DNA from: a virus
Lineage: Duplodnaviria > Heunggongvirae > Uroviricota > Caudoviricetes
Strand: one strand, 5' to 3'
Length of the DNA: 10,263 nucleotides
Virus record (IMG/VR): IMGVR_UViG_2713897055_000015
Location: 1 to 10,263 of that record
Shown here: one piece after another, positions 1 to 10,263 of the stretch
Layout of the letters: every line of letters starts with the position of its first letter
Numbering within the stretch: position 1 is the stretch's first letter
Notes under the pieces: model-generated
What the model saw: only the letters and a program-made list of their open reading frames with translations
Told to the model about the DNA's origin: nothing
The model's database searches: none
Position numbers and translations under genes: made by a program

Positions 1-25
1 AGGCGAATTTCCGCCTTCGGTCATT

Positions 26-106
26 CCTTAATCATCTGCGTAATCATAATGATTATTCAGCCAGCGCAATTTTGCGCTTTGCTTTAAGTTCAACCAGTTA
101 CCGCCA
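26..106. repeat. Copy 1 of an ~80-bp imperfect direct repeat
   Basis: Read directly: 26-106 aligns with 149-238 (CCTTAATCATCTGCGTAA...CATTCAGCCAGCGCAATTTTG(C/A)GCTTTGCTTTAA...GTTACCGCC). Contains near-palindrome AATCATAATGATTA and a short hairpin AGCGC-AATTTT-GCGCT. Confidence 0.7.
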
Positions 107-148
107 GCTTCCCCCAATGGGGGATTGTGGAATAATCAACGGTTTAGG

Positions 149-238
149 CCTTAATCATCTGCGTAAACATAAGTAATCATAATGATCATTCAGCCAGCGC
201 AATTTTGAGCTTTGCTTTAATCTCAGTGAGTTACCGCC
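149..238. repeat. Copy 2 of the ~80-bp direct repeat, with a ~9-bp internal insertion; its end overlaps the stop codon of the 93-aa ORF
   Basis: Read directly; the hairpin present in copy 1 is disrupted here (GCGC to GAGC). Confidence 0.7.
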
Positions 239-512
239 GCAACCGTTCCGGCTTCTTCCAGTGGTACGTGATTTTCTCCTTCTCCCGATACATCTCCACG
301 CGGCGACGGTATGCCAGCAACTCAAGGACTCTGGTTCGTATGTTGCGCATATCCACGCCGTTAAGCTCAATACCATCACGGCGCATCACCTCAGCAACAA
401 CACGCACATAATTTTCAGCGGTCACGCTGTCCGGATGTGTGGCCTGTTCGTCATGCTGCTGGCTGATTCCGGTAACGCGGCGGATTAATCCCAGTAGTTC
501 GGCTTCTGTCAT
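231..512 (-). CDS. Hypothetical protein (93 aa), basic C-terminus, function unknown
   Basis: ORF from the six-frame track; G-rich Shine-Dalgarno-like GGGGG about 5 nt upstream of the ATG at 510-512; protein-like composition. No family recognised by eye. Confidence 0.5.
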   Translation of the reverse strand: MTEAELLGLIRRVTGISQQHDEQATHPDSVTAENYVRVVAEVMRRDGIELNGVDMRNIRTRVLELLAYRRRVEMYREKEKITYHWKKPERLRR

Positions 513-544
513 TGTGCCCCCATCGCTCTGATAGCCTGGTGTCG

Positions 545-612
545 TCGGGTCCTTCCTGGAATTATGGCCCGTTACGGGGCGGCGACCTCACGGTTTTTCG
601 CTATTTATGAGC
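545..612 (+). other. Lambda-type cos site copy 1 (cosQ-like flank, cosN, I2-like), plus-strand orientation
   Basis: 568-589 CCCGTTACGGGGCGGCGACCTC followed by TTTTTCGCTATTTATGA. From memory this is nearly identical to the lambda cosN region, with the 12-nt cohesive-end sequence GGGCGGCGACCT at 577-588. Confidence 0.75.
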
Positions 613-626
613 TTTTTTTAGAGGGA

Positions 627-777
627 GGTTGTTGTTTAATTGTTTGTCATATCCATTTGATAACTAAGTAAAAATAAAGAGCAATACAACAACCTGATAG
701 TGTTTTTTTGATGCTAAAAATAAAAAAATGCTAATTGAATCAAATAGTTTTAAAAAAATACGTGGTTGTTGTATTGC
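627..777. promoter_or_regulatory. AT-rich region with three GGTTGTTGT-type repeats in direct-inverted-direct arrangement (candidate cosB-like terminase-binding R sites)
   Basis: GGTTGTTGTTT at 627-637; GCAATACAACAACC at 681-694, which is the exact reverse complement of GGTTGTTGTATTGC at 764-777. Spacing after cosN resembles the lambda R3-R2-R1 layout but the repeat sequence differs from the lambda R sites as I recall them. Confidence 0.45.
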
Positions 778-806
778 GTATTTGATGGCGTAACAGAAAG
801 TGATTT

Positions 807-1247
807 TTAACTTTGCTGTTCTGTAACGACTGATTGTTCCATGCTGGCACGGCGAACGCTTACGGCATGACGCCACCCAGCCAGAAAGCCGGCCATTTTA
901 TTTCGCGCTTTGCTCACTTCTTCCGGTGAGTAGCCGTAAATCTGTAAACCTTCATCAAATCTATGTTCTGTTTCTTCACTGGAGTACTCGTCACGCTCAG
1001 ATGAAAGCAGCCTGGCAACCATAATTTTTTCCAGCGCACTGGTTTCTACGTGATATCCAATGGCCTCAAGATGGCTTTTACCTGAAGACCAAAGCAATGT
1101 ATGCCCGATGTGATAACCGCCGGACTTTCCGCGATCCGCATTAAGATACGGCATCCCTTGTTTGGTCCATGCGCGAATAGTGGTTCTGTTTACCTTGAAA
1201 TGTTCAGCTATTTCCTGCTGACTTACAAAACAAGCCTTATTAATCAT
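807..1247 (-). CDS. Nu1-like small-terminase-family protein: N-terminal winged-HTH cos-binding domain with a divergent C-terminal region (146 aa)
   Basis: N-terminus MINKACFVSQQEIAEHFKVNRTTIRAWTKQGMPYLNADRGKSGG resembles lambda gpNu1 N-terminus (VNKKQLADIFGASIRTIQNWQEQGMPVLRGGGKG, recalled from memory). SD GAGGT 8 nt upstream of the ATG at 1245-1247. A cos site lies about 90 bp upstream. Confidence 0.7.
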   Translation of the reverse strand: MINKACFVSQQEIAEHFKVNRTTIRAWTKQGMPYLNADRGKSGGYHIGHTLLWSSGKSHLEAIGYHVETSALEKIMVARLLSSERDEYSSEETEHRFDEGLQIYGYSPEEVSKARNKMAGFLAGWRHAVSVRRASMEQSVVTEQQS

Positions 1248-1304
1248 AATGTTACCTCAATTGACTGATTAAATGTTAATCAAGTGGTGGTGGTGTCACC
1301 TTCA

Positions 1305-1390
1305 CGGAAAAACGTCATAAATAGCGAAAACGCGCGAGGTCGCCGCCCCGTAACGGGTCCATATGCCGGAAAGGACCCGTAAAAAAAAGC
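1305..1390 (-). other. Lambda-type cos site copy 2 (cosQ-like flank, cosN, I2-like), minus-strand orientation, directly upstream of the Nu1-like gene
   Basis: Reverse complement of 1305-1390 reads ACGGGTCCTTTCCGG..CCCGTTACGGGGCGGCGACCTCGCGCGTTTTCGCTATTTATGACG. The 12-mer is at 1337-1348 on the complement. About 85% identical to copy 1 over ~70 bp, in inverted orientation. Confidence 0.8.
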
Positions 1391-1404
1391 CGGATTTCTC
1401 CGGC
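1381..1404 (-). terminator. Intrinsic terminator (hairpin GCCGGA-TTTC-TCCGGC followed by U8 on the minus strand) ending the capsid operon
   Basis: Read directly: A8 at 1381-1388 and hairpin at 1389-1404 on the plus strand, giving hairpin plus T-run on the minus strand, 7 bp past the stop of the 137-aa ORF. Confidence 0.75.
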
Positions 1405-1410
1405 CTTGTC

Positions 1411-1824
1411 TCAGATGGTTTTCAGTATGCGCTCGATGTCGCCATCATCGCCCGGGTTTCTGCCGTCGTATGCCATGCCAGCTGAAACGGCTTGCGGGCT
1501 GTGCATGTCCATAAAGTTTTCAAAGGCTGCGGTAAGCTCCGGCGCAACCTTCTGGCGTTCCTGCTCTATGGTCATGCTAAGGATGCTTTTAGCCGTACCA
1601 ACATCGATACAAGGCACGTTTGCCATTGCACGTAACAGCGGCTGATAGTCGTTATGCTCATGAAGCGCCATAATCGCATCAGCGCGCGGCTTGTCCTGCT
1701 CTTCCAGTTTGTTGAGTTGATATACGGCCTCGTAGGTTGATAAACCTCTGTCAGCCATTGCTCGCGCTTCGGCTTTAAATTTACTCGCCAGCGGTAGCGT
1801 CATGATGCTTTCATTCGTTGCCAT
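1411..1824 (-). CDS. Hypothetical protein (137 aa), last gene of the capsid operon; function unknown
   Basis: ORF with protein-like composition, 12 nt downstream of the decoration-protein gene. No confident homology by eye. Confidence 0.65.
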   Translation of the reverse strand: MATNESIMTLPLASKFKAEARAMADRGLSTYEAVYQLNKLEEQDKPRADAIMALHEHNDYQPLLRAMANVPCIDVGTAKSILSMTIEQERQKVAPELTAAFENFMDMHSPQAVSAGMAYDGRNPGDDGDIERILKTI

Positions 1825-1836
1825 CGTTCCCCCTGC

Positions 1837-2172
1837 TTATCGGGCCAGCGGCTGAACGGATACGCCAGAACCCGCAAAGGCGGCGCATTTTTTCGCATCG
1901 GTGTCGACGCTCTCGGGCCAGTTCACGGCGGCGATATTAAAGATCCCCGTCTTGTAGCACTGTGCTGATTTCTGCTTTGACGTGTCCACGGGGTACGAAG
2001 TCAGATAAACAGCCTTTCCGGACGCCTGACCATCCCACGGCTTAAACTCGCCATTGTCCGCCAGCATCAGCGGGGTAAATTCCTGAATGACGCCAGCATC
2101 AGCGGCAAAATGTACCAGCGTCGTGGATACCTGCTGACTGCCTGCAAATAACTCAATGTATGGAGTGTTCAT
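1837..2172 (-). CDS. Head decoration protein, lambda gpD-like (111 aa)
   Basis: Translation shares TPLML, WDG, YK(S/T)G(T/I)F, WPE and AFAG motifs in the same order as lambda gpD (recalled from memory); size matches (~110 aa). Confidence 0.8.
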   Translation of the reverse strand: MNTPYIELFAGSQQVSTTLVHFAADAGVIQEFTPLMLADNGEFKPWDGQASGKAVYLTSYPVDTSKQKSAQCYKTGIFNIAAVNWPESVDTDAKKCAAFAGSGVSVQPLAR

Positions 2173-2183
2173 AGAATCCCCCG

Positions 2184-3239
2184 TTAACCAATTTTGACGG
2201 TAACAAATTTGCGAATGTCTGCCGGCACCGGCTGCGGTGCGCTGTGCGTCTGCACGTACTCAATCGCCGGATCGCCGTCCTCAATCCAGTTTTTCGGGTA
2301 GTACATGTTTTGCGTTGCGCCCGTTCTTACCGCTTCCTGATCCATAATCGCACCATAAGCAACCAGCCCTTTATTGTTGGTGTTGCCCAAGACCAGCAAA
2401 TCAGGCTCAAGGAAATGTTTTTCGGTGCCGTCGCTGTCGGCGTATTTGCCGGAATAGACGATAAGGGCAATATCGCCCAGATAGCCTTTAAAGCTCACCA
2501 CTTCGCCTAGGTTTTTACAGGCCAGTTCTGCGGCGGATTCTGAACCACGGGAAAGATCGTACAGTTCGCGGAATTTTTTAAAGCTGCGTAACGTGCGCCA
2601 TACCTCAGCGCCCATAATCATGACGTTTGCGGGGCAATTGCCCTGATCCGCATAAAGCTCGATATCATAGATTGGATCGTGGGTTTCTTTGTCCTGCTCG
2701 GACCATTTACGGCCTTTGGCCTGCTCTATGATGTTGTTTTCCGGCATCTTCCAGTCGATTTCATAGCGTTCTATGCCTTCGCCCTCAATGATGTTTTTTC
2801 CGGTCGTTACCGCATTTACCGCCAGCCATTCAACACGCGCTTTAATAGCGTTTACCTGGCGGCGCATGTTGCCAGTAATCAGGCGCATACGGCGATAGGT
2901 TGGGTCGTTAAGCTGTGCCGGATCTTCTCCAGCCATGCGCATGATGGTTTTTGTTGGATCGATTTCGTGCTTTGGCTTCATGTAGCCAGGTTTAATCGTG
3001 CTGGTTTCGTACCCTTTATCGCGCTGTACCTGGCTACCAACCATAGGCGAGCAAAACGCTGACATAGTGACTTCTTCGGTGTCCAGGTTATCCAGCATGA
3101 TGTTTTGGGTGTTGAATGTCGCTACTTTCGGGAAAAACAGCGTGGTAAACAGCGGACTAAATTTAAATTCCGCAATATCCCCGCGATTCAGGTACGCAAA
3201 AAGCTGGTTAGTGTTAAGTGCCGTTGCTTTGCCTGCCAT
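2184..3239 (-). CDS. Major capsid protein, lambda gpE family (351 aa)
   Basis: Extended blocks match lambda gpE as recalled: EFKFSPLF..LFF, PGYMKPKHEI, GEDPAQLNDPTYRRMRLI, VSFKGYLGDIALIVYSGKY, YPKNWIEDGDPA. Confidence 0.92.
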   Translation of the reverse strand: MAGKATALNTNQLFAYLNRGDIAEFKFSPLFTTLFFPKVATFNTQNIMLDNLDTEEVTMSAFCSPMVGSQVQRDKGYETSTIKPGYMKPKHEIDPTKTIMRMAGEDPAQLNDPTYRRMRLITGNMRRQVNAIKARVEWLAVNAVTTGKNIIEGEGIERYEIDWKMPENNIIEQAKGRKWSEQDKETHDPIYDIELYADQGNCPANVMIMGAEVWRTLRSFKKFRELYDLSRGSESAAELACKNLGEVVSFKGYLGDIALIVYSGKYADSDGTEKHFLEPDLLVLGNTNNKGLVAYGAIMDQEAVRTGATQNMYYPKNWIEDGDPAIEYVQTHSAPQPVPADIRKFVTVKIG

Positions 3240-3445
3240 TATTCACCCCCATAATTTTTATGCATCCCAAGCGCCGCAAGTAAATAAGAGCGCACAAGTG
3301 AACCTATCGACGGCTCCGGCGTCATCAGCGGATCCAGTCCAGCCGCTACGCCAGCCTCATAGTTTTTTTTGTGGCGCTGCTTGAGCACCTCCACGATTTC
3401 GGGGCTTATGTACACCGAAACACCGCCTTTTTTCTCTTCTGCCAT
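3239..3445 (-). CDS. Hypothetical small protein (68 aa), first gene of the capsid operon, translationally coupled to the capsid gene (TAATG overlap)
   Basis: SD AGAGGA ~11 nt upstream of the ATG at 3443-3445; stop overlaps the capsid gene start by 1 nt. Confidence 0.6.
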   Translation of the reverse strand: MAEEKKGGVSVYISPEIVEVLKQRHKKNYEAGVAAGLDPLMTPEPSIGSLVRSYLLAALGMHKNYGGE

Positions 3446-3484
3446 AGTCAGAAATTCCTCTTTGACTTAAAAAAATCACAACTG

Positions 3485-3512
3485 GATGTTCATCCAGTTA
3501 TGATTATAATCA
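3485..3512. promoter_or_regulatory. Promoter/operator region upstream of the capsid operon: imperfect inverted repeat GGATG-TT-CATCC (3485-3496) and perfect 12-bp palindrome TGATTATAATCA (3501-3512) containing TATAAT on both strands
   Basis: Read directly; lies 40-70 bp upstream of the first capsid-operon ATG. Confidence 0.5.
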
Positions 3513-3608
3513 TGATTGCATTTTGCGCAATAAAATTGAGTTGTGTTGCAAATTATGAAATGATTTACAGCAACAGTAGTCACCATGCTGTTAACCTCGT
3601 AAGCAAAA

Positions 3609-3647
3609 GCCCGATAAGCTTCCTCCTGTACTTATCGGGCTTTTTTT
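3609..3647 (+). terminator. Hairpin (GCCCGATAAG...CTTATCGGGC) followed by T7 on the plus strand; intrinsic terminator for a plus-strand transcript or bidirectional element
   Basis: 10-bp stem, 12-nt loop, seven T at 3641-3647. No annotated plus-strand gene ends here. Confidence 0.5.
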
Positions 3648-3653
3648 GGGTAC

Positions 3654-3676
3654 AAAAAGCCGGATTTTCTCCGGCC
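3654..3676 (-). terminator. Intrinsic terminator of the SSB operon (hairpin GCCGGATTTTCTCCGGC, U5 on the minus strand); near-identical to the terminator at 1381-1404
   Basis: Read directly; lies 8 bp past the SSB stop codon. Confidence 0.7.
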
Positions 3677-3683
3677 TGTGCGT

Positions 3684-4094
3684 TCAGAACGGAATATCAT
3701 CACCGTAGGGGTCATCGTCTCCCGCTGGTGGCTGATTACCCTGTGCGCCTGTGGTTTTGCGTCTGTTCCCGCCAGGACGTGCCGCACGGGCACTGATTAC
3801 GCTGTCTGCAATAACCTGATAACCCTGCCGCGTTTCCCCGTTCTGTCCGGTCCACTGGCTTATCTGCATCACGCCAGATATGCTGGCAACGTCGCCTTTT
3901 TGATGTTTAGCCAGGAAGTCGGCCTGCTTACCAAATGCCATCACCGATAGCCATAACGTAGCCGTTCCGTCATCTGCCTGGCTGCACGGAAGGGGGACCG
4001 CCATACGCGCCAGCGTCATCGGTGTGCCCTTGCTGGTCTGTTTTACCTGCGGGTCGTCCACCAGCCGCCCGTAAGCGGCTATCTGTGCTGTCAT
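3684..4094 (-). CDS. ssb: Single-stranded DNA-binding protein (SSB family, 136 aa)
   Basis: OB-fold-like N-terminal region resembling E. coli SSB, Gly/Gln-rich linker, and the characteristic acidic C-terminal tail ending DDIPF. Confidence 0.88.
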   Translation of the reverse strand: MTAQIAAYGRLVDDPQVKQTSKGTPMTLARMAVPLPCSQADDGTATLWLSVMAFGKQADFLAKHQKGDVASISGVMQISQWTGQNGETRQGYQVIADSVISARAARPGGNRRKTTGAQGNQPPAGDDDPYGDDIPF

Positions 4095-4405
4095 GATTCC
4101 ACCTCTCCGGTTTTAACGTTGATGGTTGTTACCTGTTCCGCTTCGGCAATCTCCCGTTCTGTCAGCGTGGCAAAGTTTGCCGCCGCTGTGGTCATGAATG
4201 CGCTTATCAGGTCGGGATGTTCCTTCGCGTATCCTTCCCGCGTGTGGCGGTCTATCGTTCTGATTGCCACCTTTAAGGTATGCTCAGTCATGTCTAACGC
4301 TTTATATTTTGGCTCTGTTCTGTCTCTGCGAATTTTGGTCATTTGTCGCCCCTGGTTCATGTTTTCGGCTGGCATGTTTGTTAAGTGATTTTGATGTATG
4401 CGCAT
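4091..4405 (-). CDS. Hypothetical protein (104 aa) translationally coupled to ssb (ATGA overlap)
   Basis: SD GAGGGGGTGA upstream of the ATG at 4403-4405; stop overlaps the ssb start. Function not recognised. Confidence 0.6.
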   Translation of the reverse strand: MRIHQNHLTNMPAENMNQGRQMTKIRRDRTEPKYKALDMTEHTLKVAIRTIDRHTREGYAKEHPDLISAFMTTAAANFATLTEREIAEAEQVTTINVKTGEVES

Positions 4406-4452
4406 TTATTTTCACCCCCTCGTTTAAAAAGTTTTTAGTTGTGCCTCCCCCC

Positions 4453-4675
4453 CTCTACCCATCTACCCGAATGCTCATCATGTCAGTAATGGCGCGGCTT
4501 TCAGCGGGTAGATAGCTTTTTGGGCTCCTCTACCTGCCGTCTACCCTGCTACCTGAAACTGATAAAATCAGGTAGAAGAGGTAGAGAGCTTTTATTAGCC
4601 TTCTACCTAGCCCTCTACCCACTTATCATGTTGAATAATATGCGTTTATTTCATTCAGGTAGATGGGGTAGAGGG
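4453..4675. repeat. Iteron array (about 12 copies of a TCTACC-core octamer in both orientations) with AT-rich stretches; putative origin of replication
   Basis: CTCTACCC 4453-4460, ATCTACCC 4461-4468, GGGTAGATA 4506-4514, CTCTACCT 4528-4535, TCTACCCT 4540-4547, CAGGTAGAAG 4569-4578, GGTAGAGA 4580-4587, TTCTACCT 4601-4608, CTCTACCC 4613-4620, GGTAGAT 4658-4664, GGGTAGAGGG 4666-4675. Lies immediately 3' of, and overlapping, the primase gene end. Confidence 0.7.
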
Positions 4676-6438
4676 CTTTTACAAAAAATTATAAAAAACG
4701 CGTCGCAATCGTCTGTTGTAATTGCGTTGGTCTGCGTTACTCCCTTAACTTTTCGCGTAATATATTCATGCCCGTAAACTTTCGCCGCTGGCTTCATGGC
4801 CTTGCTGAACTCAGCCACGTTTAGCGGTTTGCTCCTGCCTGCGTATGCCATAAACGCCAGATAGACGCGGTAAAGGCTGTTCCTGGTCGTGTACTTCACT
4901 GAATCGCCACCGCCGCCCATCATCAGGCCGCGTGCTTCCTCCAGAAAATTCAGGAACTGGCAAAACTCAATAACCGGATCCGTCTGTTGCTTTATTGCCA
5001 GAGCTTCATCACCGTCACGCTGTTCCAGTAGTAAAGCCCGTGCCTTCTCAGGGTCGGTAAAGTTCGCCAGCAATCGGCGGATAATGACAGGGATTTCAGC
5101 CGCAATCTTTTCCGGTAGCTCCCTGTCTTTTTCGGCCTCACTGACGATATTGTCGAAACGGAAAATTACGCGACGACGTGACACACCTCCGGCCCGTTCG
5201 GTGAATATCATCGGGTTATTGTTGGTAGCCAGCACCACCGCCCTGATTACCGCCGTAAAACGCTTCTCATATTTCGGGTTAATTTCCACGGGGTCGCCGC
5301 CCGTGATTTTCTTGATGCCCGTTCCTTCGCCTGTATATTTCGGCTGGTCAGCCAGGACGATAAGACGACTCCCGACAACCTGCGCACGTCCACCAGCATC
5401 ATCAAGCGATGTCATTTCAGCGCTTACCGTGTTCTGTTTCCCTGCCAGAAGGCTGGCTATGTGTGTGAATGTACTTTTACCGCTCCCGCCGTCTCCGGTG
5501 GCCTCAATAAACATCTGCCAGTCGTACCGGTTCGCCATAATCATGTACAGCGCGGCACATATACGCATCATCTTGCGCGGGTCTTTTCCGGCTGCGTGCT
5601 CAAGCCATTTATGAAAGTTTGGCGCGTTGTCGCGGATATTCTCCCCTGGTGCTGGTGGCGTGTACTCAATGCCGTTGTGCGTGGTGATCCAGTTCTCCGG
5701 CGTGTGCGGGGAAAATTCCCCCGTTTTCAGGTCAAGCGCACCATTGGCGAACGGCAGCAAATCGCCGGACGGCTCGCCCATTGGTTCGGCAATAACTTTT
5801 AACGCTTCCACGGCGTTATTGATTACGCGCTTGCTGAAAGTGGCCCTGTGCTCTGAATAGATCGCCACCATTTCGCGGCTAAGTTCCATTGTGCTGACCG
5901 GACACCATACCCCGCCGCGCCATACGTGAACGATTTCACTTTCCGGATGCACACAAACGCCATCAAATCGACCAGCAAGCATCTGTGCGCGCTCACTGTC
6001 TGCCATTTGTGCCAGTTGCGTATTTTTCTGCTCCGGCATGGTAAGCCCTGCGGCAATATTTTCACGCTCAGCATTCAGATAGCGCCGCCAGTTTTCACAC
6101 TTCTGGACGTGCATTCCTTCGTGGTAAAAATTTGCGTCCTGAATATCTGCCGCCGCCAGCTTCTGACCAATCTTTTTGGTCTCCACTAAATCCAGTTCTC
6201 CGGCCTGGTACAGCCTTACGCGCTTTTTCCCATCCGGAACAATTTTCAGCGCATCAAGTTCGGCAAGCTGCTTTGGCCCAAGCCACACAGGCGGCACATT
6301 ATCGCCGGATGCGGGGCCATCCTGCTCCTGCCATTGTTTCGCGTGCGACCAGGCATCACTACCCGCAAAGATAATTACCTCTGTGTCTTTGTGTTTTATT
6401 CCGCGTGGCTGTTTTTTTACGTTCGGTGCCAGTTTCAT
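4651..6438 (-). CDS. Primase-helicase of the P4 alpha / D5 family (595 aa) with a P-loop NTPase domain
   Basis: Walker A motif GDGGSGKST within a region typical of phage/plasmid primase P4-family C-terminal domains; position (upstream of iterons, downstream of immunity-type genes) matches satellite replication genes. The final ~17 codons are encoded by iteron sequence. Confidence 0.88.
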   Translation of the reverse strand: MKLAPNVKKQPRGIKHKDTEVIIFAGSDAWSHAKQWQEQDGPASGDNVPPVWLGPKQLAELDALKIVPDGKKRVRLYQAGELDLVETKKIGQKLAAADIQDANFYHEGMHVQKCENWRRYLNAERENIAAGLTMPEQKNTQLAQMADSERAQMLAGRFDGVCVHPESEIVHVWRGGVWCPVSTMELSREMVAIYSEHRATFSKRVINNAVEALKVIAEPMGEPSGDLLPFANGALDLKTGEFSPHTPENWITTHNGIEYTPPAPGENIRDNAPNFHKWLEHAAGKDPRKMMRICAALYMIMANRYDWQMFIEATGDGGSGKSTFTHIASLLAGKQNTVSAEMTSLDDAGGRAQVVGSRLIVLADQPKYTGEGTGIKKITGGDPVEINPKYEKRFTAVIRAVVLATNNNPMIFTERAGGVSRRRVIFRFDNIVSEAEKDRELPEKIAAEIPVIIRRLLANFTDPEKARALLLEQRDGDEALAIKQQTDPVIEFCQFLNFLEEARGLMMGGGGDSVKYTTRNSLYRVYLAFMAYAGRSKPLNVAEFSKAMKPAAKVYGHEYITRKVKGVTQTNAITTDDCDAFFIIFCKSPLPHLPE

Positions 6439-6734
6439 TTTTTACCCCTGAATACGTTAAGCATCTTTTTTATTTCCTGAATATTGGCGCGTGCTTTCTC
6501 CCTGCTGGTTGGTTTACTGCGGGGCGCTGCCTGTACCAGAGAAAAATCACGATCGAACTGATAAACAGGCATAACGCAGTCATATTCGTAGCCTTCACGG
6601 CGGTAAGTTACGCGCCGTTCCTCCACGCCTTTAATCGTTACCGTGCCGCCGTACTGGTCGCGGTAAATATCCCCGCGCATGAATTTAGTGCGAGTTTTGC
6701 CACTGGCAGTTAAGCCAGAATATTTAAGTTTCAT
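6435..6734 (-). CDS. Small protein (99 aa), possibly DUF4222-like, translationally coupled to the primase gene (ATGA overlap)
   Basis: Motif RRVTYRREGYEYDCV recalls DUF4222-type proteins from P4-like elements (from memory, unverified); SD GGAG upstream. Confidence 0.55.
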   Translation of the reverse strand: MKLKYSGLTASGKTRTKFMRGDIYRDQYGGTVTIKGVEERRVTYRREGYEYDCVMPVYQFDRDFSLVQAAPRSKPTSREKARANIQEIKKMLNVFRGKK

Positions 6735-6739
6735 TATTT

Positions 6740-6967
6740 TTATTCTCCGGTGTGGGGCGCGTTATTATTTTCGTGAATTGCCATCGCCTTATCCAGTTCA
6801 TCAATTACAGGCGATAGTAATGTCTGAACGGCGGCAAGCATTAATGACGAAGATTCTTCTCCAGCTTCCGTTGCTTCAATTAATTTAATTAACAACGCAT
6901 TCATTTCACGCGCTTTAATTAATGCGTTTTCAGAATGAATAAGAACATCATAGGGTATTTTATTCAT
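6740..6967 (-). CDS. Hypothetical small protein (75 aa), overlapping the upstream Icd-like gene by 8 nt
   Basis: ORF with protein-like composition in operon context. Function unknown. Confidence 0.55.
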   Translation of the reverse strand: MNKIPYDVLIHSENALIKAREMNALLIKLIEATEAGEESSSLMLAAVQTLLSPVIDELDKAMAIHENNNAPHTGE

Positions 6968-7130
6968 GACTCACCCCCTGACGAATACGGGCGACAAAAA
7001 TCAGATGTGCGTGCGGCAGCTGGGCGCGTGCTTCGCGTTCAGTGGCAGCGGTAACGGTGTAAATATCAATGCTGCTGTGGTGGCACTGCATAAAGCGCCA
7101 GACAAAGTAAGGGCGTGCGGATACAGCCAT
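6960..7130 (-). CDS. Icd-like small protein, copy 2 (56 aa; MAVSARPYFVWRF...ARIRQGVSHE)
   Basis: Start chosen at the internal ATG (7128-7130), preceded by AGGAG at 8-nt spacing. The C-terminal 50 aa are paralogous to copy 1. The long N-terminal extension in the ORF track (168 aa) is not supported. Confidence 0.6.
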   Translation of the reverse strand: MAVSARPYFVWRFMQCHHSSIDIYTVTAATEREARAQLPHAHLIFVARIRQGVSHE

Positions 7131-7194
7131 GTGAAAGGCTCCTACAGTAATTTTAAGGAGTCTCGCTACTACGCTGCTAAACGGGGTGGCGAGA

Positions 7195-7256
7195 CGTAAC
7201 AGGGTTAGCAGACTGGCACTGTAGGAACCAGCGAGCGCAAAGGCTCCCCCGTTACG
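7195..7256 (-). ncRNA. Candidate CI/C4-like immunity RNA carrying a seqB-like element
   Basis: On the minus strand CGUAACGGG (from plus 7248-7256) can pair with CCCUGUUACG (from plus 7195-7204), closing a ~60-nt element that contains GGUUCCUACAGUGCCAGUCUGCUAACC. That inner sequence is complementary to an upstream stretch (7321-7360) and to the SD region of Icd-like copy 2 (7138-7150). Confidence 0.4.
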
Positions 7257-7416
7257 CCCCGCCATAATGCGGGTATGGGTAGGCTTACGGACACAAAAAA
7301 ACCGCATATCGGAATATAAGCGGCTGTCCGCTACAGTATTCAGGCTGCTAAACCCGGTCGCCATGTGGGCGACGGGGGAAGCATACAGCCCCGTTATAAT
7401 TTTTTGCAAGCGGTTT

Positions 7417-7614
7417 TTACGCATGATGTGACCCCTGACGAATACGGGCGGCGAATACAGCAACACAACCGGACGGGCAACGGCTACGCGCTTCGCGTTC
7501 CGTCCAGGCGGTTACGTGGATGATTTGATGGTCTGACGCGCCAAAGGCAATAAAACGCCACACAAAGGCGGTTTGTGTGTGCGCTAGTCGTGGGGTATGC
7601 TGTCTTACAGCCAT
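7417..7614 (-). CDS. Icd-like small protein, copy 1 (65 aa; MAVRQHTPRLAHTQTAFVWRF...ARIRQGSHHA)
   Basis: Start chosen at the ATG (7612-7614) preceded by AGGAG at 8-nt spacing, same start context as copy 2 (AGGAG-N8-ATGGCTGTA). The ORF-track extension to 7737 is unsupported. Confidence 0.55.
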   Translation of the reverse strand: MAVRQHTPRLAHTQTAFVWRFIAFGASDHQIIHVTAWTEREARSRCPSGCVAVFAARIRQGSHHA

Positions 7615-7689
7615 AATCGTTACTCCTGTTAACGGTTTGGTTAGACGCCCTGCATGTGTGCCACCACTGCGGGGCGTTGTCGTTTGGTG

Positions 7690-7799
7690 CATCGCACCAC
7701 TCATTTTTAACCTATCAGTAAGTGAATCGCACTTCAAGCCTTTCTCTGAAATTTTTTTTTGTGTATACTGAATCGCACCAACTTAGAGAGGATTCAGTA
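7690..7799. promoter_or_regulatory. Divergent promoter/operator region with repeated (TG)AATCGCAC motifs and a T9 tract
   Basis: ATCGCAC at 7692-7698, GTGAATCGCAC at 7722-7732, TGAATCGCACC at 7770-7780; TATACT -10-like hexamer at 7764-7769 preceded by TG, upstream of the RHH gene; the minus-strand immunity-type operon starts in the opposite direction. Confidence 0.5.
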
Positions 7800-7979
7800 A
7801 TGGCAACAGGTTCAACAAATAATAAGTCGCAACAGTTAAATGCCAGATTCCCGCATGATGTTGTTGCAGACTTAGAAAAAAATTTAGATGAAGGTGAAAG
7901 CAAGGCGCAATTTATAGTTACTGCCGTTAAAGGCGAGATCAAACGCCGCCAGCGCCGCAAGGCCAAAGAATCAGAATAA
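7800..7979 (+). CDS. Small ribbon-helix-helix-like DNA-binding protein (59 aa)
   Basis: Start at the ATG (7800-7802) with SD GAGAGGA. Sequence pattern QLNARFPHDVVADLEKNLDE..FIVTAVKGEI fits a beta-strand/helix/helix (CopG/Arc-like) layout; basic C-terminus. The upstream extension in the ORF track depends on a GTG and crosses the promoter. Confidence 0.6.
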   Translation: MATGSTNNKSQQLNARFPHDVVADLEKNLDEGESKAQFIVTAVKGEIKRRQRRKAKESE

Positions 7980-8036
7980 TCACTATCAGCGCCGTGGTGT
8001 GAGGTACTACGGCGCATTGCTTTACAGGGCAGTATC

Positions 8037-8264
8037 ATGACCAACAACACACTATTACCAATACAAGACACGCAAACCCAAGATGATGAAATCATCCGGC
8101 AAAGGCAGTCAGAAGCCTGCGCCAGAGTTGAGGAAGAACTAACCAGAACAAAAATACCACCACCAGCGCCGCGCTTAATGCCACCAGAAAAATTTGCCCT
8201 TGAAGATTTTGTCGAGAAATACCCACGGCGGTTAAAAGCCACTAAAAACCGACCGCCTGGCTGA
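8037..8264 (+). CDS. Hypothetical small protein (75 aa), acidic N-terminal half and Pro-rich segment
   Basis: ORF downstream of the RHH gene after a hairpin (GCGCCGT..ACGGCGC, 7991-8017); weak SD. Function unknown. Confidence 0.45.
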   Translation: MTNNTLLPIQDTQTQDDEIIRQRQSEACARVEEELTRTKIPPPAPRLMPPEKFALEDFVEKYPRRLKATKNRPPG

Positions 8265-8420
8265 TAGCCTTGTCCACCAGCTACGGCGGTGCTAAGATCG
8301 AAAGCTGCATAAGTCATGAAATAAACTCCTTAGCGGTGCATACGCGCCGCTTCTTTCTTCACGAACAACCGCGAACAACTACAAACAAAAACACGGACGG
8401 AATTTAAAGAATGAATATTC

Positions 8421-8615
8421 TTAATTGACGCGTTCGCGGTTTTTGACCCACGCCACAACCTCAGACTTAACCCAGCCAACCGAACGACCGCCAAGACTGA
8501 TACGGGAGGGAAAGCGGCCTTGTTTTTCCATCTCGTAACGAGTTGTGCGGCAAACGCCTGTTAGCTCTCTGCATTCTTTTTCGCGGATTACACGATCTTC
8601 ATTTATTTCGCGCAT
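8421..8615 (-). CDS. alpA: AlpA-family phage transcriptional regulator / excisionase-like protein (64 aa)
   Basis: Small HTH protein with the typical AlpA-family pattern (..LTGVCRTTRYEMEKQGRFP..I.LG.RSVGW...EV..W...) located next to a P4-type integrase. Confidence 0.85.
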   Translation of the reverse strand: MREINEDRVIREKECRELTGVCRTTRYEMEKQGRFPSRISLGGRSVGWVKSEVVAWVKNRERVN

Positions 8616-9024
8616 AAAAAGCCCTACATAAAATTACGTATAGAAATTTTTGTTTCGCTGTGGATATACGGAAAGAGATTACTTCTTAGCTTTTCTTACC
8701 TCTTAAATTGATGGCGTAACCTTGCCAAAAGCTATGCTCGACAAGGTTCGCAAGGGTTCGTTGTTGTTCATAAAATCGTTGCACACCAGGAAAGACAATT
8801 CAACATTAAAATTCCCTCTACAGTGAGGAATAATAAAAAAAACAAATTAAAACAGTCACATAAAAGCATGCACTTTGAAATAAAGGAAAATATTAAAACT
8901 CAAGTAGACAATCGCTGTTTTCAAATTTTTTCAATACTTGACACATATAAATCGTCGATATTTGCCGATATTCGACGATTTATTTTAGAGGGCCATTTTT
9001 CGCAAGAAAAACAGCCGTAATTTG

Positions 9025-10263
9025 TCAAGAATTTTGAGAGTAAATTCGCGGGGTCATAACAACGATTTTTTCATCATTGTTCTGGAGAAGCTCGAGACGC
9101 TCAACCCATAGATTAAGAGCGTCACGTTTTGCATCGAGATAACGGGAGTGATTATAGACTCGTTGCACTCCTGGCAACTGGTGCGCGGTTAGCTGCTCCA
9201 CTACATGAGGATCCACGCCTAAATCGTTCAGCATCGTTGTAAACGTGTGCCGGATGTCGTGCAACGTCCAGGGGGCTTGATTAATACGTCTGTGTGCCGT
9301 TCTTCCGTACTCTGATACGGATGATTGCCCTTTCAGTTCTCCGAGCAATAATCCCGTGTGCCTGTTCTGCTCCACCAGCTTCGTTACGAACGGCAAGATC
9401 GCTTCCGGTATTGGCCTGAATATTGCTACCTTCGTTTTGCTATGTTCTTTCGGCACGGTCCAGAGCATTTCTTTAAAATCCCATTCCTGGACCTCAGAGC
9501 GTCTTAGCTCAGTGGTACGACATCCGAAGACAATCAGGAGGCGAATCAGGGCGCTGTAGTACGGTGGGTAAATTTTTTCATCCAGGGCGCGGAGTAATTC
9601 CCCAAGCTCCTTGTTTGTTAGTACGCGCTCGCTTATTTCTGCTTTTTTCCCAACATCACCTACAACCATATCATCTAGAACGTTGGTAATTGCGTAGCGT
9701 CGTTTGCGGCAGTACTTAAGCGCCTGCTTGCATACCTGTAACAAAAATCCTGCTGATACCGGATTACGCTTAGCAAGCTGATCAAAACAGGTCAGCCAGT
9801 GGCGTAGCTCGCATTTTTCCAGCGGCATAGCACCAATATGGCTGATTATGTGTGTATTGATCCGGCTTTTCAGAGATTCGTAATCTGTGCGCTTTTCCTT
9901 CGCGTACGATTCAAGCCAGTAAGTGAGCGCTTCCTTAACCGTAACAGGTGATAACGCTTCCTGTACGGTGTGATTAAGCTCATGGCGTGGATTTTTACCC
10001 TCAGCAAGCCAGGCGCGACACTGCGACGCTTTTTCCCTGGCTGCTTTCAGGCTCAAATCTGGATAATTTCCCAGCCTCAGACGTTCAGGGGCTACCTTCC
10101 TGCCTGTTCCGGCCCTGTAAGTGAAATACCAGGTTAACAGGCCATTGGTTGAATGCCTTACGCTAAGGTTGCCACCATCATTAAAAAAGGTGTTTTTTGT
10201 GGTTGGTGATCCGCTTAATTTTCGTAAAAGAGTGTCGCTAAGTCTATGAATTGCCCTGCTCAT
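9025..10263 (-). CDS. int: Tyrosine site-specific integrase, P4-type (412 aa; start codon at the window edge, N-terminus possibly a few residues longer)
   Basis: N-terminal arm-binding-type region (LSD..L..L.....K....DGG.L.V.....G...W.F.Y) and C-terminal catalytic signature HDIRHT ... VYNHSRY, typical of P4/CP4-57-type integrases. Confidence 0.95.
   Translation of the reverse strand: MSRAIHRLSDTLLRKLSGSPTTKNTFFNDGGNLSVRHSTNGLLTWYFTYRAGTGRKVAPERLRLGNYPDLSLKAAREKASQCRAWLAEGKNPRHELNHTVQEALSPVTVKEALTYWLESYAKEKRTDYESLKSRINTHIISHIGAMPLEKCELRHWLTCFDQLAKRNPVSAGFLLQVCKQALKYCRKRRYAITNVLDDMVVGDVGKKAEISERVLTNKELGELLRALDEKIYPPYYSALIRLLIVFGCRTTELRRSEVQEWDFKEMLWTVPKEHSKTKVAIFRPIPEAILPFVTKLVEQNRHTGLLLGELKGQSSVSEYGRTAHRRINQAPWTLHDIRHTFTTMLNDLGVDPHVVEQLTAHQLPGVQRVYNHSRYLDAKRDALNLWVERLELLQNNDEKIVVMTPRIYSQNS

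Follow-up and report, generated by a model that had tools for sequence, protein, structure and literature searches.

A predicted C4-family antisense RNA with covarying target sites ahead of the primase operon of a putative phage-inducible chromosomal island

RNAs of the C4 type are stable molecules of ~77 nucleotides (nt) that are released from a longer precursor, RNase P making their 5' end in P1 and P4. In P1 and P7, the c4 RNA binds around the ribosome binding site and blocks translation, and this activity underlies the heteroimmunity of the two phages (PMC12197685, PMC8198154). The CI RNA of P4 pairs with seqA and seqC and prevents the expression of replication genes (PMC4825925, PMC3632133), and IsrK-C4 immunity has been established for P4, P1, P7, N15, and some lambdoid prophages (PMC3632133). 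The founding paper on the phage-inducible chromosomal islands (PICIs) of Gram-negative bacteria, which describes capsid and decoration homologues, does not mention an antisense RNA and leaves unclear whether a repressor exists (PMC6092414). The DNA analyzed here, referred to as the window, is the whole stretch of 10,263 nt at positions 1 to 10,263 of the IMG/VR virus record IMGVR_UViG_2713897055_000015. On its minus strand, the window contains a c4 cassette, the RNA of which belongs to the already well-known regulatory kind represented by the C4/CI immunity RNAs of P1, P7, and P4, with a new specificity allele. What is modestly new is the context, in that the cassette sits immediately 5' of the primase operon of an island that, judged by its gene content, is of the EcCICFT073 type.

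A first-pass annotation of the window had proposed an RNA immunity arrangement of the P4 CI type around a structured RNA at 7195-7256, and had named a covariance-model search with the C4 family and RNA folding as ways to check it. In this search, the Rfam model of C4 antisense RNA (RF01695) matched the window at 7269..7182 on the minus strand over its full length (1-87) with 71.5 bits and E = 9.5e-13, the gathering score being 45 bits, and RF01695 was the sole Rfam family to reach its own threshold anywhere in the 10.3-kb window. The same model gave 74.9 bits for the P4 CI RNA, 70.8 bits for P1, and 69.6 bits for P7. The minimum free energy (MFE) of the window C4 RNA was -45.4 kcal/mol, compared with -29.2 +/- 3.3 for 200 dinucleotide shuffles, none of which was as stable (z = -4.86). 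Both the MFE and the centroid structures comprise a closing stem of 18 base pairs (bp; 7264..7247 with 7204..7187) around two hairpins, with the block a' in the loop of the second hairpin and the block b' in a single-stranded linker. Hence, the structured RNA that had been proposed was recovered by both checks, whereas its limits were not, because the closing stem of 9-10 bp assigned to 7195-7256 represents only the inner ~10 bp of the 18-bp stem and the model spans 7269..7182. In alignment with P7 c4, the window RNA shows an acceptor-like stem rich in G-C pairs and, after it, an ACC tail, which is consistent with a processed RNA of ~77 nt, and the mature C4 RNA is predicted to be 7263..7185 (~79 nt), with its ends placed by alignment to the annotated 77-nt c4 of P7.

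The a' and b' blocks of this RNA each have a counterpart on both sides of it. The two-block complementarity upstream and downstream that had been described in the first-pass annotation, the quoted sequences of which are all present on the minus strand, consists of exact complements that covary at both sites. In the downstream flank, the loop UCCUACAGU (7226..7218) is exactly complementary to ACUGUAGGA (7148..7140), and the longer segment ACUGUAGGAGCC (7148..7137) forms 12 pairs with the C4 loop, namely 11 Watson-Crick pairs and one G-U pair, which accounts for the match of 11 of 12 nt noted earlier. This segment, the block a2, covers the Shine-Dalgarno sequence AGGAG (7143..7139) located 8 nt 5' of the ATG at 7130 of icd-like2, the second of two Icd-like genes, in agreement with the placement of the downstream target in the first-pass annotation. 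Shuffling produced two blocks in the correct order, each of 7 nt or more, in 453/400,000 cases for the upstream flank and 112/400,000 cases for the downstream flank, and the joint chance of the blocks in both flanks is ~3e-7, assuming that the flanks are independent.

For comparative analysis, c4 loci were gathered by scanning genome and viral contigs for the conserved 16-mer GCCAGTCTGCTAACCC, and, as most raw matches in the genome contigs were due to chance, only matches with the hairpin-plus-linker pattern were kept. The c4 loci that passed this filter numbered 146, and their loop sequences were of more than 30 kinds. In the gathered loci, b' is invariant by construction, being part of the search pattern, and the E-values of these loci depend on the pattern with its fixed b'; the complementarity of a1 and a2 was not used to select them. 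In nearly all of the 146 loci, the segments after b1 and after b2 exactly complement the loop of the same locus. The covariation alignment (A2) contained 19 representatives, one per loop type, and is thereby enriched for variation in a'. Among these representatives, 100% of the cells of the upstream pairing (b1:b' and a1:a') were paired, and six of the seven "a" pairs were changed on both sides, with three to five pair types each; slid controls were paired at 21-47%, and none of 500 shuffles reached the covariation score. For the downstream pairing (a':a2 and b':b2), 98.1% of the cells were paired, six of the seven "a" pairs were again changed on both sides, slid controls reached 25-59%, and the covariation score was attained by 0/500 shuffles. 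The helices of C4 itself were 95-100% paired with compensatory changes, and every one of them is intact in the window. On these comparative data, selection for the complementarity of the C4 blocks and their targets can be regarded as settled.

The specificity of the window differs from those of its nearest described relatives. In a blastn search of a phage collection, window 7172-7361 matched P1, P7, D6, SJ46, RCS47, and other P1-like phages with 78-81% identity, and the match overlies the P7 feature c4, which is annotated as "antisense RNA acting on targets icd and ant". In the three-way alignment, both a1 and a2 read ACUUACG in P1, GAUUGUG in P7, and ACUGUAG in the window, with loop a' sequences of CGUAAGU, CACAAUC, and CUACAGU, respectively. 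Thus, the "a" block differs among the three in step at all three sites, and such a stepwise difference is the known basis of P1/P7 heteroimmunity (PMC12197685). Among the 146 loci, E. coli EH41 alone shared the loop type of the window. A P1-type ant gene accompanies 73 of the loci, and ~25 are accompanied by satellite genes (primase, integrase, AlpA, DUF4222, or capsid), with many different loop types and the same design kept.

Some further observations concern the pairing blocks. On the minus strand, the segment UAGCGAGAC (7168..7160) of the spacer that separates b2 from a2 complements GUCUCGCCA (7195..7187), the 3' side of the stem that closes C4. This pairing is kept with compensatory changes in distant loci, duplexes within a locus average -11.3 kcal/mol versus -8.0 kcal/mol across loci, and the pairing would give an alternative hairpin with b2 in its loop that is mutually exclusive with the C4 fold. 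A third ACTGTAG occurs at 8824..8818 on the minus strand, upstream of alpA and with no b block near; it is probably due to chance, since about one copy of any 7-mer is estimated per 10-kb window over both strands. Targets of the window specificity were also sought in viral contigs with the pattern TTAGCAG-N10-36-ACTGTAGGAG, and the 119 matches were rejected as an unrelated coding repeat and chance matches, none having a'/b' near. Two c4 copies reside in one genome or contig in six cases (L110/L167, L137/L166, L143/L177, L041/L044, L072, and L049), and their loops differ in five of them; in L049, two identical copies lie 355 nt apart. As a test of heteroimmunity, these co-resident copies are consistent but uninformative, because most random pairs would also differ when there are more than 30 types.

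Upstream of C4 lies a leader equivalent to seqA of P4 (Table 1). A candidate promoter is located directly 5' of where the Rfam c4-a1b1 model starts and aligns with TTGACC-17-TATAGT of P1/P7, and its TATnnT box is present in 19/19 representatives; its function at 7409..7380 is suggested by this homology. The leader forms the hairpin GUCGCC/GGCGAC (7373..7357) and the hairpin CGGG/CCUG (7356..7341) with b1 in its loop, and the helix around b1 is 100% paired in the 19 sequences. Between a1 and C4, the sequence reads GCGG-ACAG-CCGC-N14-GCGG-U7-G-UGUCCG, from which competing hairpins can be drawn. One of them, H3 (AGCGG-ACAG-CCGCU, 7332..7319), includes the last two bases of a1, and pairing of C4 with a1 and formation of H3 are therefore mutually exclusive. 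The A-U pair of H3 at alignment columns 77 and 90 covaries with four pair types (AU 12, UA 4, CG 1, and GC 1), and the a1 position involved also covaries with the C4 loop. The other is a terminator-like hairpin (GCCGC...GCGGU, 7324..7301) that adjoins the U7 run at 7301..7295, and its CCGC arm can pair with either GCGG. The stem of this hairpin is invariant, and covariation is therefore uninformative on it; at the same place, the distant locus L114 has GGCGC/GCGCC/GGCGC followed by U8. The isrK model places a Rho-independent terminator at the U7 hairpin of the window, which was not flagged in a consensus terminator scan, its loop being too long for the rule of that scan. A helix of CGGACA (7330..7325) with UGUCCG (7293..7288) bridges the U-run and corresponds to CGGGUA:UGCCCG in other satellites and GCGACA:UGUCGC in P4. 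When the nascent leader was folded, P1 and the satellite locus L111 gave the terminator hairpin only with a1 occupied.

Downstream of C4, the gene whose start is targeted encodes a protein of the NCBIfam family NF033153, which also matches P7 Icd (the icd products of P1 and P7 being of the same family) and the P4 open reading frame (ORF) after cI, both aligned with the window ORF; Pfam gave no match for the Icd-like ORFs. The NF033153 domain occupies residues 9-51 of the 56 amino acids (aa) of icd-like2 and lies entirely downstream of the ATG at 7130, a start codon with an AGGAG of its own. The upstream gene, icd-like1, corresponds to the single Icd-like gene of EcCICFT073, and its start has no C4 target. 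In all listed E. coli carriers of the cassette, PGAP/RefSeq calls an over-long coding sequence (CDS) for a "host cell division inhibitor Icd-like protein" through c4, with no RNA feature. In the window, this corresponds to the ORF 7466..6960, with a GTG start and 168 aa, and in L003 to 9061-9525.

From the RNA family, the fold, the complementarity to the targets, the covariation at three sites, and the gene context described above, we infer the following working. The promoter at ~7409..7380 would transcribe the b1/a1 leader, C4, b2/a2, and icd-like2 in this order, and C4 would be cut from the transcript as an RNA of ~79 nt. Its a' and b' blocks could then pair with a2 and b2 on the same kind of transcript, which would cover the Shine-Dalgarno sequence of icd-like2 and block translation. 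Without translation of icd-like2, the replication operon may in turn be shut down, both because translational coupling is lost and through Rho-dependent polarity of the kind described for P1 and P4, from the literature on which the polarity step is taken. This shut-down is expected because icd-like2 overlaps the next ORF, orf75, by its last 8 nt and the following genes are tightly packed, with an overlap of 4 nt between the DUF4222 and primase genes; the orf75-DUF4222-primase unit (4651..6967) is presumed to be the C4-regulated output. The a1/b1 site beside the hairpin and U-run probably provides C4-dependent early termination and thus feedback on C4 itself, and the 7-nt "a" block would set the specificity, with the element carrying its own allele. 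The outcome would be an RNA brake on replication and a quiescent island, and C4 most likely keeps the replication genes of the island off. That 7269..7182 on the minus strand encodes a C4-family antisense RNA with a complete set of cis targets, taken jointly with this working, is assigned a probability of roughly 0.85.

Several points weigh against this reading. The candidate promoter matches only 8 of 12 consensus positions and was not flagged by a simple consensus promoter scan. The leader scored 45.5 bits with the c4-a1b1 model RF03163, 1.2 bits short of the gathering score of 46.7, in a full-length match with both hairpins (E = 3.2e-10), and 35.7 bits with isrK (RF01394, gathering score 50) in a match that runs end to end and includes the terminator (E = 5.5e-6). 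Folding of the nascent window leader gave the terminator hairpin with or without a1 occupied, as it did for P4, and a clean thermodynamic switch in the window, with an evident difference in energy, was rejected for this reason. The prototype island EcCICFT073 (L224 22931-33655, in CFT073) has one Icd-like gene and no C4 match at E <= 0.01, and in Gifsy-1 the leader RNA activates in trans and the C4-like region is translated as orf45 (PMC4825925). An explanation that rivals or complements the translation block places the main control in termination of leader transcription, as at the P4 immunity sites, rather than at the ribosome site: C4 bound to a1 would melt the base of H3 and free CCGC for the hairpin at U7, and transcripts would stop before c4, icd-like2, and the primase gene. 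The overlap of a1 with the covarying pair of H3, the choice of CCGC between two GCGG partners ahead of a U-run, the terminator aligned here by the isrK model, the dependence of the P1 and L111 hairpins on an occupied a1, and the same three-part design in P4 argue for such control, as do the findings that pairing of the CI RNA with seqA and seqC leads transcription to terminate and that the end of IsrK is formed by a Rho-independent terminator, which is read through in part (PMC4825925). The invariant stem speaks neither for nor against it, whereas the hairpin predicted in both states for the window and P4, together with the short stem (4-5 G-C pairs) and the loop of 14 nt, tells against it, and termination leaves unexplained why a2 lies exactly on the Shine-Dalgarno sequence in every lineage; as the main control, it is a serious possibility at somewhat less than even odds. 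The leader could also end at U7 as a free small RNA of the IsrK type and act in trans as a decoy or anti-antisense RNA, titrating C4 or remodeling the long transcript such that the downstream genes are on during induction. The end-to-end alignment with isrK and the P4 seqA region, which scores above the isrK threshold, point this way, as does the 77-nt IsrK of Gifsy-1, which activates translation of a downstream ORF and an antirepressor in trans and is complementary to a processed ~80-nt RNA (PMC4825925); IsrK-like elements of P4-like prophages are moreover required in S. Typhi (PMC3632133). However, the window leader scores below the isrK cut-off, the accumulation of a short leader RNA is an assumption here, and co-expression of the C4-like RNA in Gifsy-1 did not relieve the effect of IsrK, such that a decoy is unproven even there (PMC4825925), and this possibility is considered rather unlikely. 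Neither termination nor an IsrK-type decoy would preclude the ribosome-site block.

Two further explanations would deny the cassette its function as an RNA gene. If the region were protein-coding as RefSeq has it, the RNA-like features would be incidental to a long "Icd-like" protein, and the frame upstream of the icd-like2 ATG is indeed open throughout in the window and in 10/19 representatives, the long CDS is called by PGAP in every listed E. coli genome, and the ORF that overlaps the C4-like RNA of Gifsy-1 is translated (PMC4825925). This frame, however, contains in-frame stops in the other 9/19 representatives, P1 and P7 among them, and indels of 1-2 nt fall inside the region, on which grounds the long-ORF reading was rejected. 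Furthermore, the Icd domain lies wholly 3' of the internal ATG with its own Shine-Dalgarno sequence, the variation tracks base pairing at three separated sites rather than codons, and the P7 record annotates c4 as RNA with the start of icd downstream of it, which together make a coding origin of these features extremely improbable. Alternatively, the cassette could be a decaying remnant of a P1-like phage that is idle in the island, as might be suggested by the prototype island without it and by its presence in only 140 of the ~1,100 E. coli genomes in which related icd-like regions occur. Against a remnant stand the three "a" blocks, perfectly complementary and with a specificity not seen in P1-like phages, the intactness of every C4 helix, and the same design in ~25 satellite loci of many specificities. 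A private specificity matched at three sites requires selection after divergence, and a relic is therefore most unlikely, if slightly less so than the coding explanation. The absence of C4 from EcCICFT073 led to rejection of the idea that all such PICIs use C4; as the prototype lacks C4, the c4-icd-like2 cassette is a variable module in the island family, and, as EcCICFT073 works without c4, it would be an add-on brake and not the core regulator of the island. A functional C4-family brake is the preferred reading.

Table 1. Coordinates of the c4 cassette, its pairing blocks, and the genes of the window
Feature	Coordinates	Strand	Basis or remarks
C4 antisense RNA gene	7182..7269	minus	RF01695 match, fold z, helix covariation
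a' UCCUACAGU, specificity determinant, loop of second hairpin	7218..7226	minus	complementarity, covariation
b' CUGCUAA, single-stranded linker	7205..7211	minus	exact complements; identical in P1 and P7
b1 UUAGCAG, upstream target of b'	7351..7345	minus	exact complement of CUGCUAA
a1 ACUGUAG, upstream specificity target	7331..7337	minus	exact complement of loop CUACAGU; covariation
b2 UUAGCAG, downstream target of b'	7174..7180	minus	exact complement of CUGCUAA; covariation
a2 ACUGUAGGAGCC, downstream specificity target	7137..7148	minus	complementarity, covariation
b2-a2 spacer segment UAGCGAGAC	7160..7168	minus	complementary to closing-stem 3' arm 7195..7187
Candidate constitutive promoter	7380..7409	minus	-35 TTGCAA 7409..7404, 18-nt spacer, -10 TATGCT 7385..7380
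a1b1 leader (P4 seqA equivalent)	7337..7386	minus	c4-a1b1 RF03163; position 7337 = first base of a1
Competing hairpins and U-run	7288..7332	minus	isrK alignment, covariation, leader folding
c4 cassette	7409..7137	minus	
icd-like2, 56 aa, start = C4 target	6960..7130	minus	NCBIfam NF033153 phage_ICD_like 55.1 bits
icd-like1, 65 aa, upstream of cassette	7417..7614	minus	NF033153 62.8 bits
Integrase	10263..9025	minus	
AlpA	8615..8421	minus	
YlcI/YnfO family	7800-7979	plus	
orf75, 75-aa ORF	6967..6740	minus	
DUF4222	6734..6435	minus	Pfam
D5_N-type primase/helicase	6438..4651	minus	Pfam
SSB	4094..3684	minus	
Lambda-E-type major capsid protein	3239..2184	minus	
Head decoration-type ORF	2172..1837	minus	named by synteny with EH41 and CFT073
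Helix-turn-helix (HTH) protein at the place of the annotated terminase small subunit of EH41	1247..807	minus	synteny; weak Pfam HTH matches

By its gene content and order, the host element of the cassette is judged to be a PICI of the EcCICFT073 type, its genes including int, alpA, a pri-rep gene with origin repeats at its 3' side, and homologues of capsid-E and of the decoration protein, and the size of such an island being ~11 kb; portal, protease, and large terminase genes were not seen in the window. All window genes lie on the minus strand except for the YlcI/YnfO gene and a 75-aa ORF at 8037-8264, which lie between alpA and icd-like1 and are transcribed in the other direction. Hairpins resembling terminators are found at 7989-8015 and 7685-7699, and the alpA unit and the icd-c4-primase unit may be separate transcription units. 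At least eight repeats of the CTCTACCC/GGGTAGAG type, oriented in either direction, are spread across the 3' end of the primase gene (4440-4680), and these iteron-like repeats are probably the replication origin of the island; in EcCICFT073, the origin lies immediately 3' of pri-rep, and deletion of the capsid or decoration homologue neither restored normal lambda plaques nor affected island transfer (PMC6092414). When AlpA is over-expressed in EcCICFT073, that island has been seen to replicate on its own or to be toxic with no helper present (PMC6092414). A closely related island of ~11 kb is located between cspD/yljB and clpS in E. coli EH41, the DNA of which shows 100% identity to window 7131-7390, and no complete E. 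coli genome was identical to the window, the best showing ~93% identity over ~83% of its length. By tblastn, P7 Ant1, for which the 73 P1-like loci were positive, had no match in the window, and neither had P4 Sid, Delta, and Psu, epsilon not being part of that search; the result for P4 alpha was pooled with the primase of the window itself and is uninformative. Since Ant1, Sid, Delta, and Psu have no homologue in it, the element is no P1 immI operon and does not belong to the P4-family satellites. Of 5,426 complete E. coli genomes, 140 contained the 260-nt cassette, which occupied 165 places, each of them on a chromosome, and a match to the icd-like region in its wider extent was obtained for ~1,100 E. 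coli genomes.

The understanding of the C4 RNA family itself is unchanged by these findings, the significance of which lies elsewhere. In annotation, the cassette lies under an over-extended "Icd-like" CDS in the 140 of 5,426 E. coli genomes that carry it, such that an RNA gene and the true 56-aa ORF are missed. In satellite biology, a C4-type brake ahead of a primase operon is a concrete and testable candidate for how some PICIs stay quiet, and no paper naming both "C4 antisense" and "PICI" was found in the literature searched. In addition, the more than 30 covarying specificities form a clean natural data set on the diversification of short RNA-RNA "address" sequences. More tentatively, and as a combined proposal that is perhaps a little more likely to fail than to hold, the c4-icd cassette could be an RNA-immunity module that is portable and moves between P1-like phage-plasmids and EcCICFT073-type PICIs. 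In the islands that carry it, it would supply the missing repressor of the replication operon of Gram-negative PICIs, act at both an a1-coupled terminator switch and the a2 ribosome site, and use an address code of more than 30 alleles of the 7-nt "a" block that lets several elements share a cell without cross-repression.

Among the described systems, the immI operon of P1/P7 shares with the window ~80% DNA identity over 190 nt, the same fold, and identical b blocks, as well as the order of promoter, a1b1, hairpin with U-run, c4, b2, a2 with the Shine-Dalgarno sequence, and an Icd-family gene. In P1/P7, c4-icd is followed by ant1/ant2 under the C1 operator, whereas the window has no ant, no C1 operator context, and a DUF4222-primase output, contains a second Icd-like gene upstream, and is hosted by an integrated satellite island instead of a phage-plasmid. 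The island prototype, EcCICFT073, shares the gene order of int, alpA, YlcI/YnfO (opposite strand), Icd-like, DUF4222, primase, SSB, capsid, and head decoration, with iteron-like repeats at the 3' end of the primase gene, and differs in having one Icd-like gene and no C4, the c4-icd-like2 cassette being extra in the window. IsrK/STnc1160 of the Salmonella prophage Gifsy-1 resembles the cassette in its terminated leader (a structural homologue of seqA), its processed complementary RNA of ~80 nt, and a short ORF coupled to the next gene (PMC4825925), but its output is an antirepressor. The P4 CI system, to which the first-pass annotation had likened the locus, falls in the same Rfam family and has the same layout, with one block in a hairpin loop and one single-stranded, a hairpin with U7 after seqA, then the RNA, and two downstream blocks. 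Here, seqA corresponds to b1 and a1, seqB to a' and b', and seqC to b2 and a2, and the second block of seqC lies on AGGAGG before the ATG of an Icd-like ORF. P4 also has a replication operon with primase as the output and is an integrated satellite with an integrase and an AlpA/Vis-type gene. Unlike P1/P7, P4 has no blastn similarity to the window, its b block is UUCUCAC and its a block is different, its sid, delta, and psu have no counterpart, and its seqA leader reaches 60.8 bits with isrK, above the cut-off that the window leader misses. The earlier likening to P4 thus holds in arrangement and is refined in two respects: the host is a PICI, and the cassette is, by sequence comparison, nearer to P1/P7 c4 than to P4. 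The gene context is P4-like in function, with the RNA ahead of a primase operon and not of an antirepressor, and the labels "P4-type" and "P1-type" denote a single design and a single RNA family.

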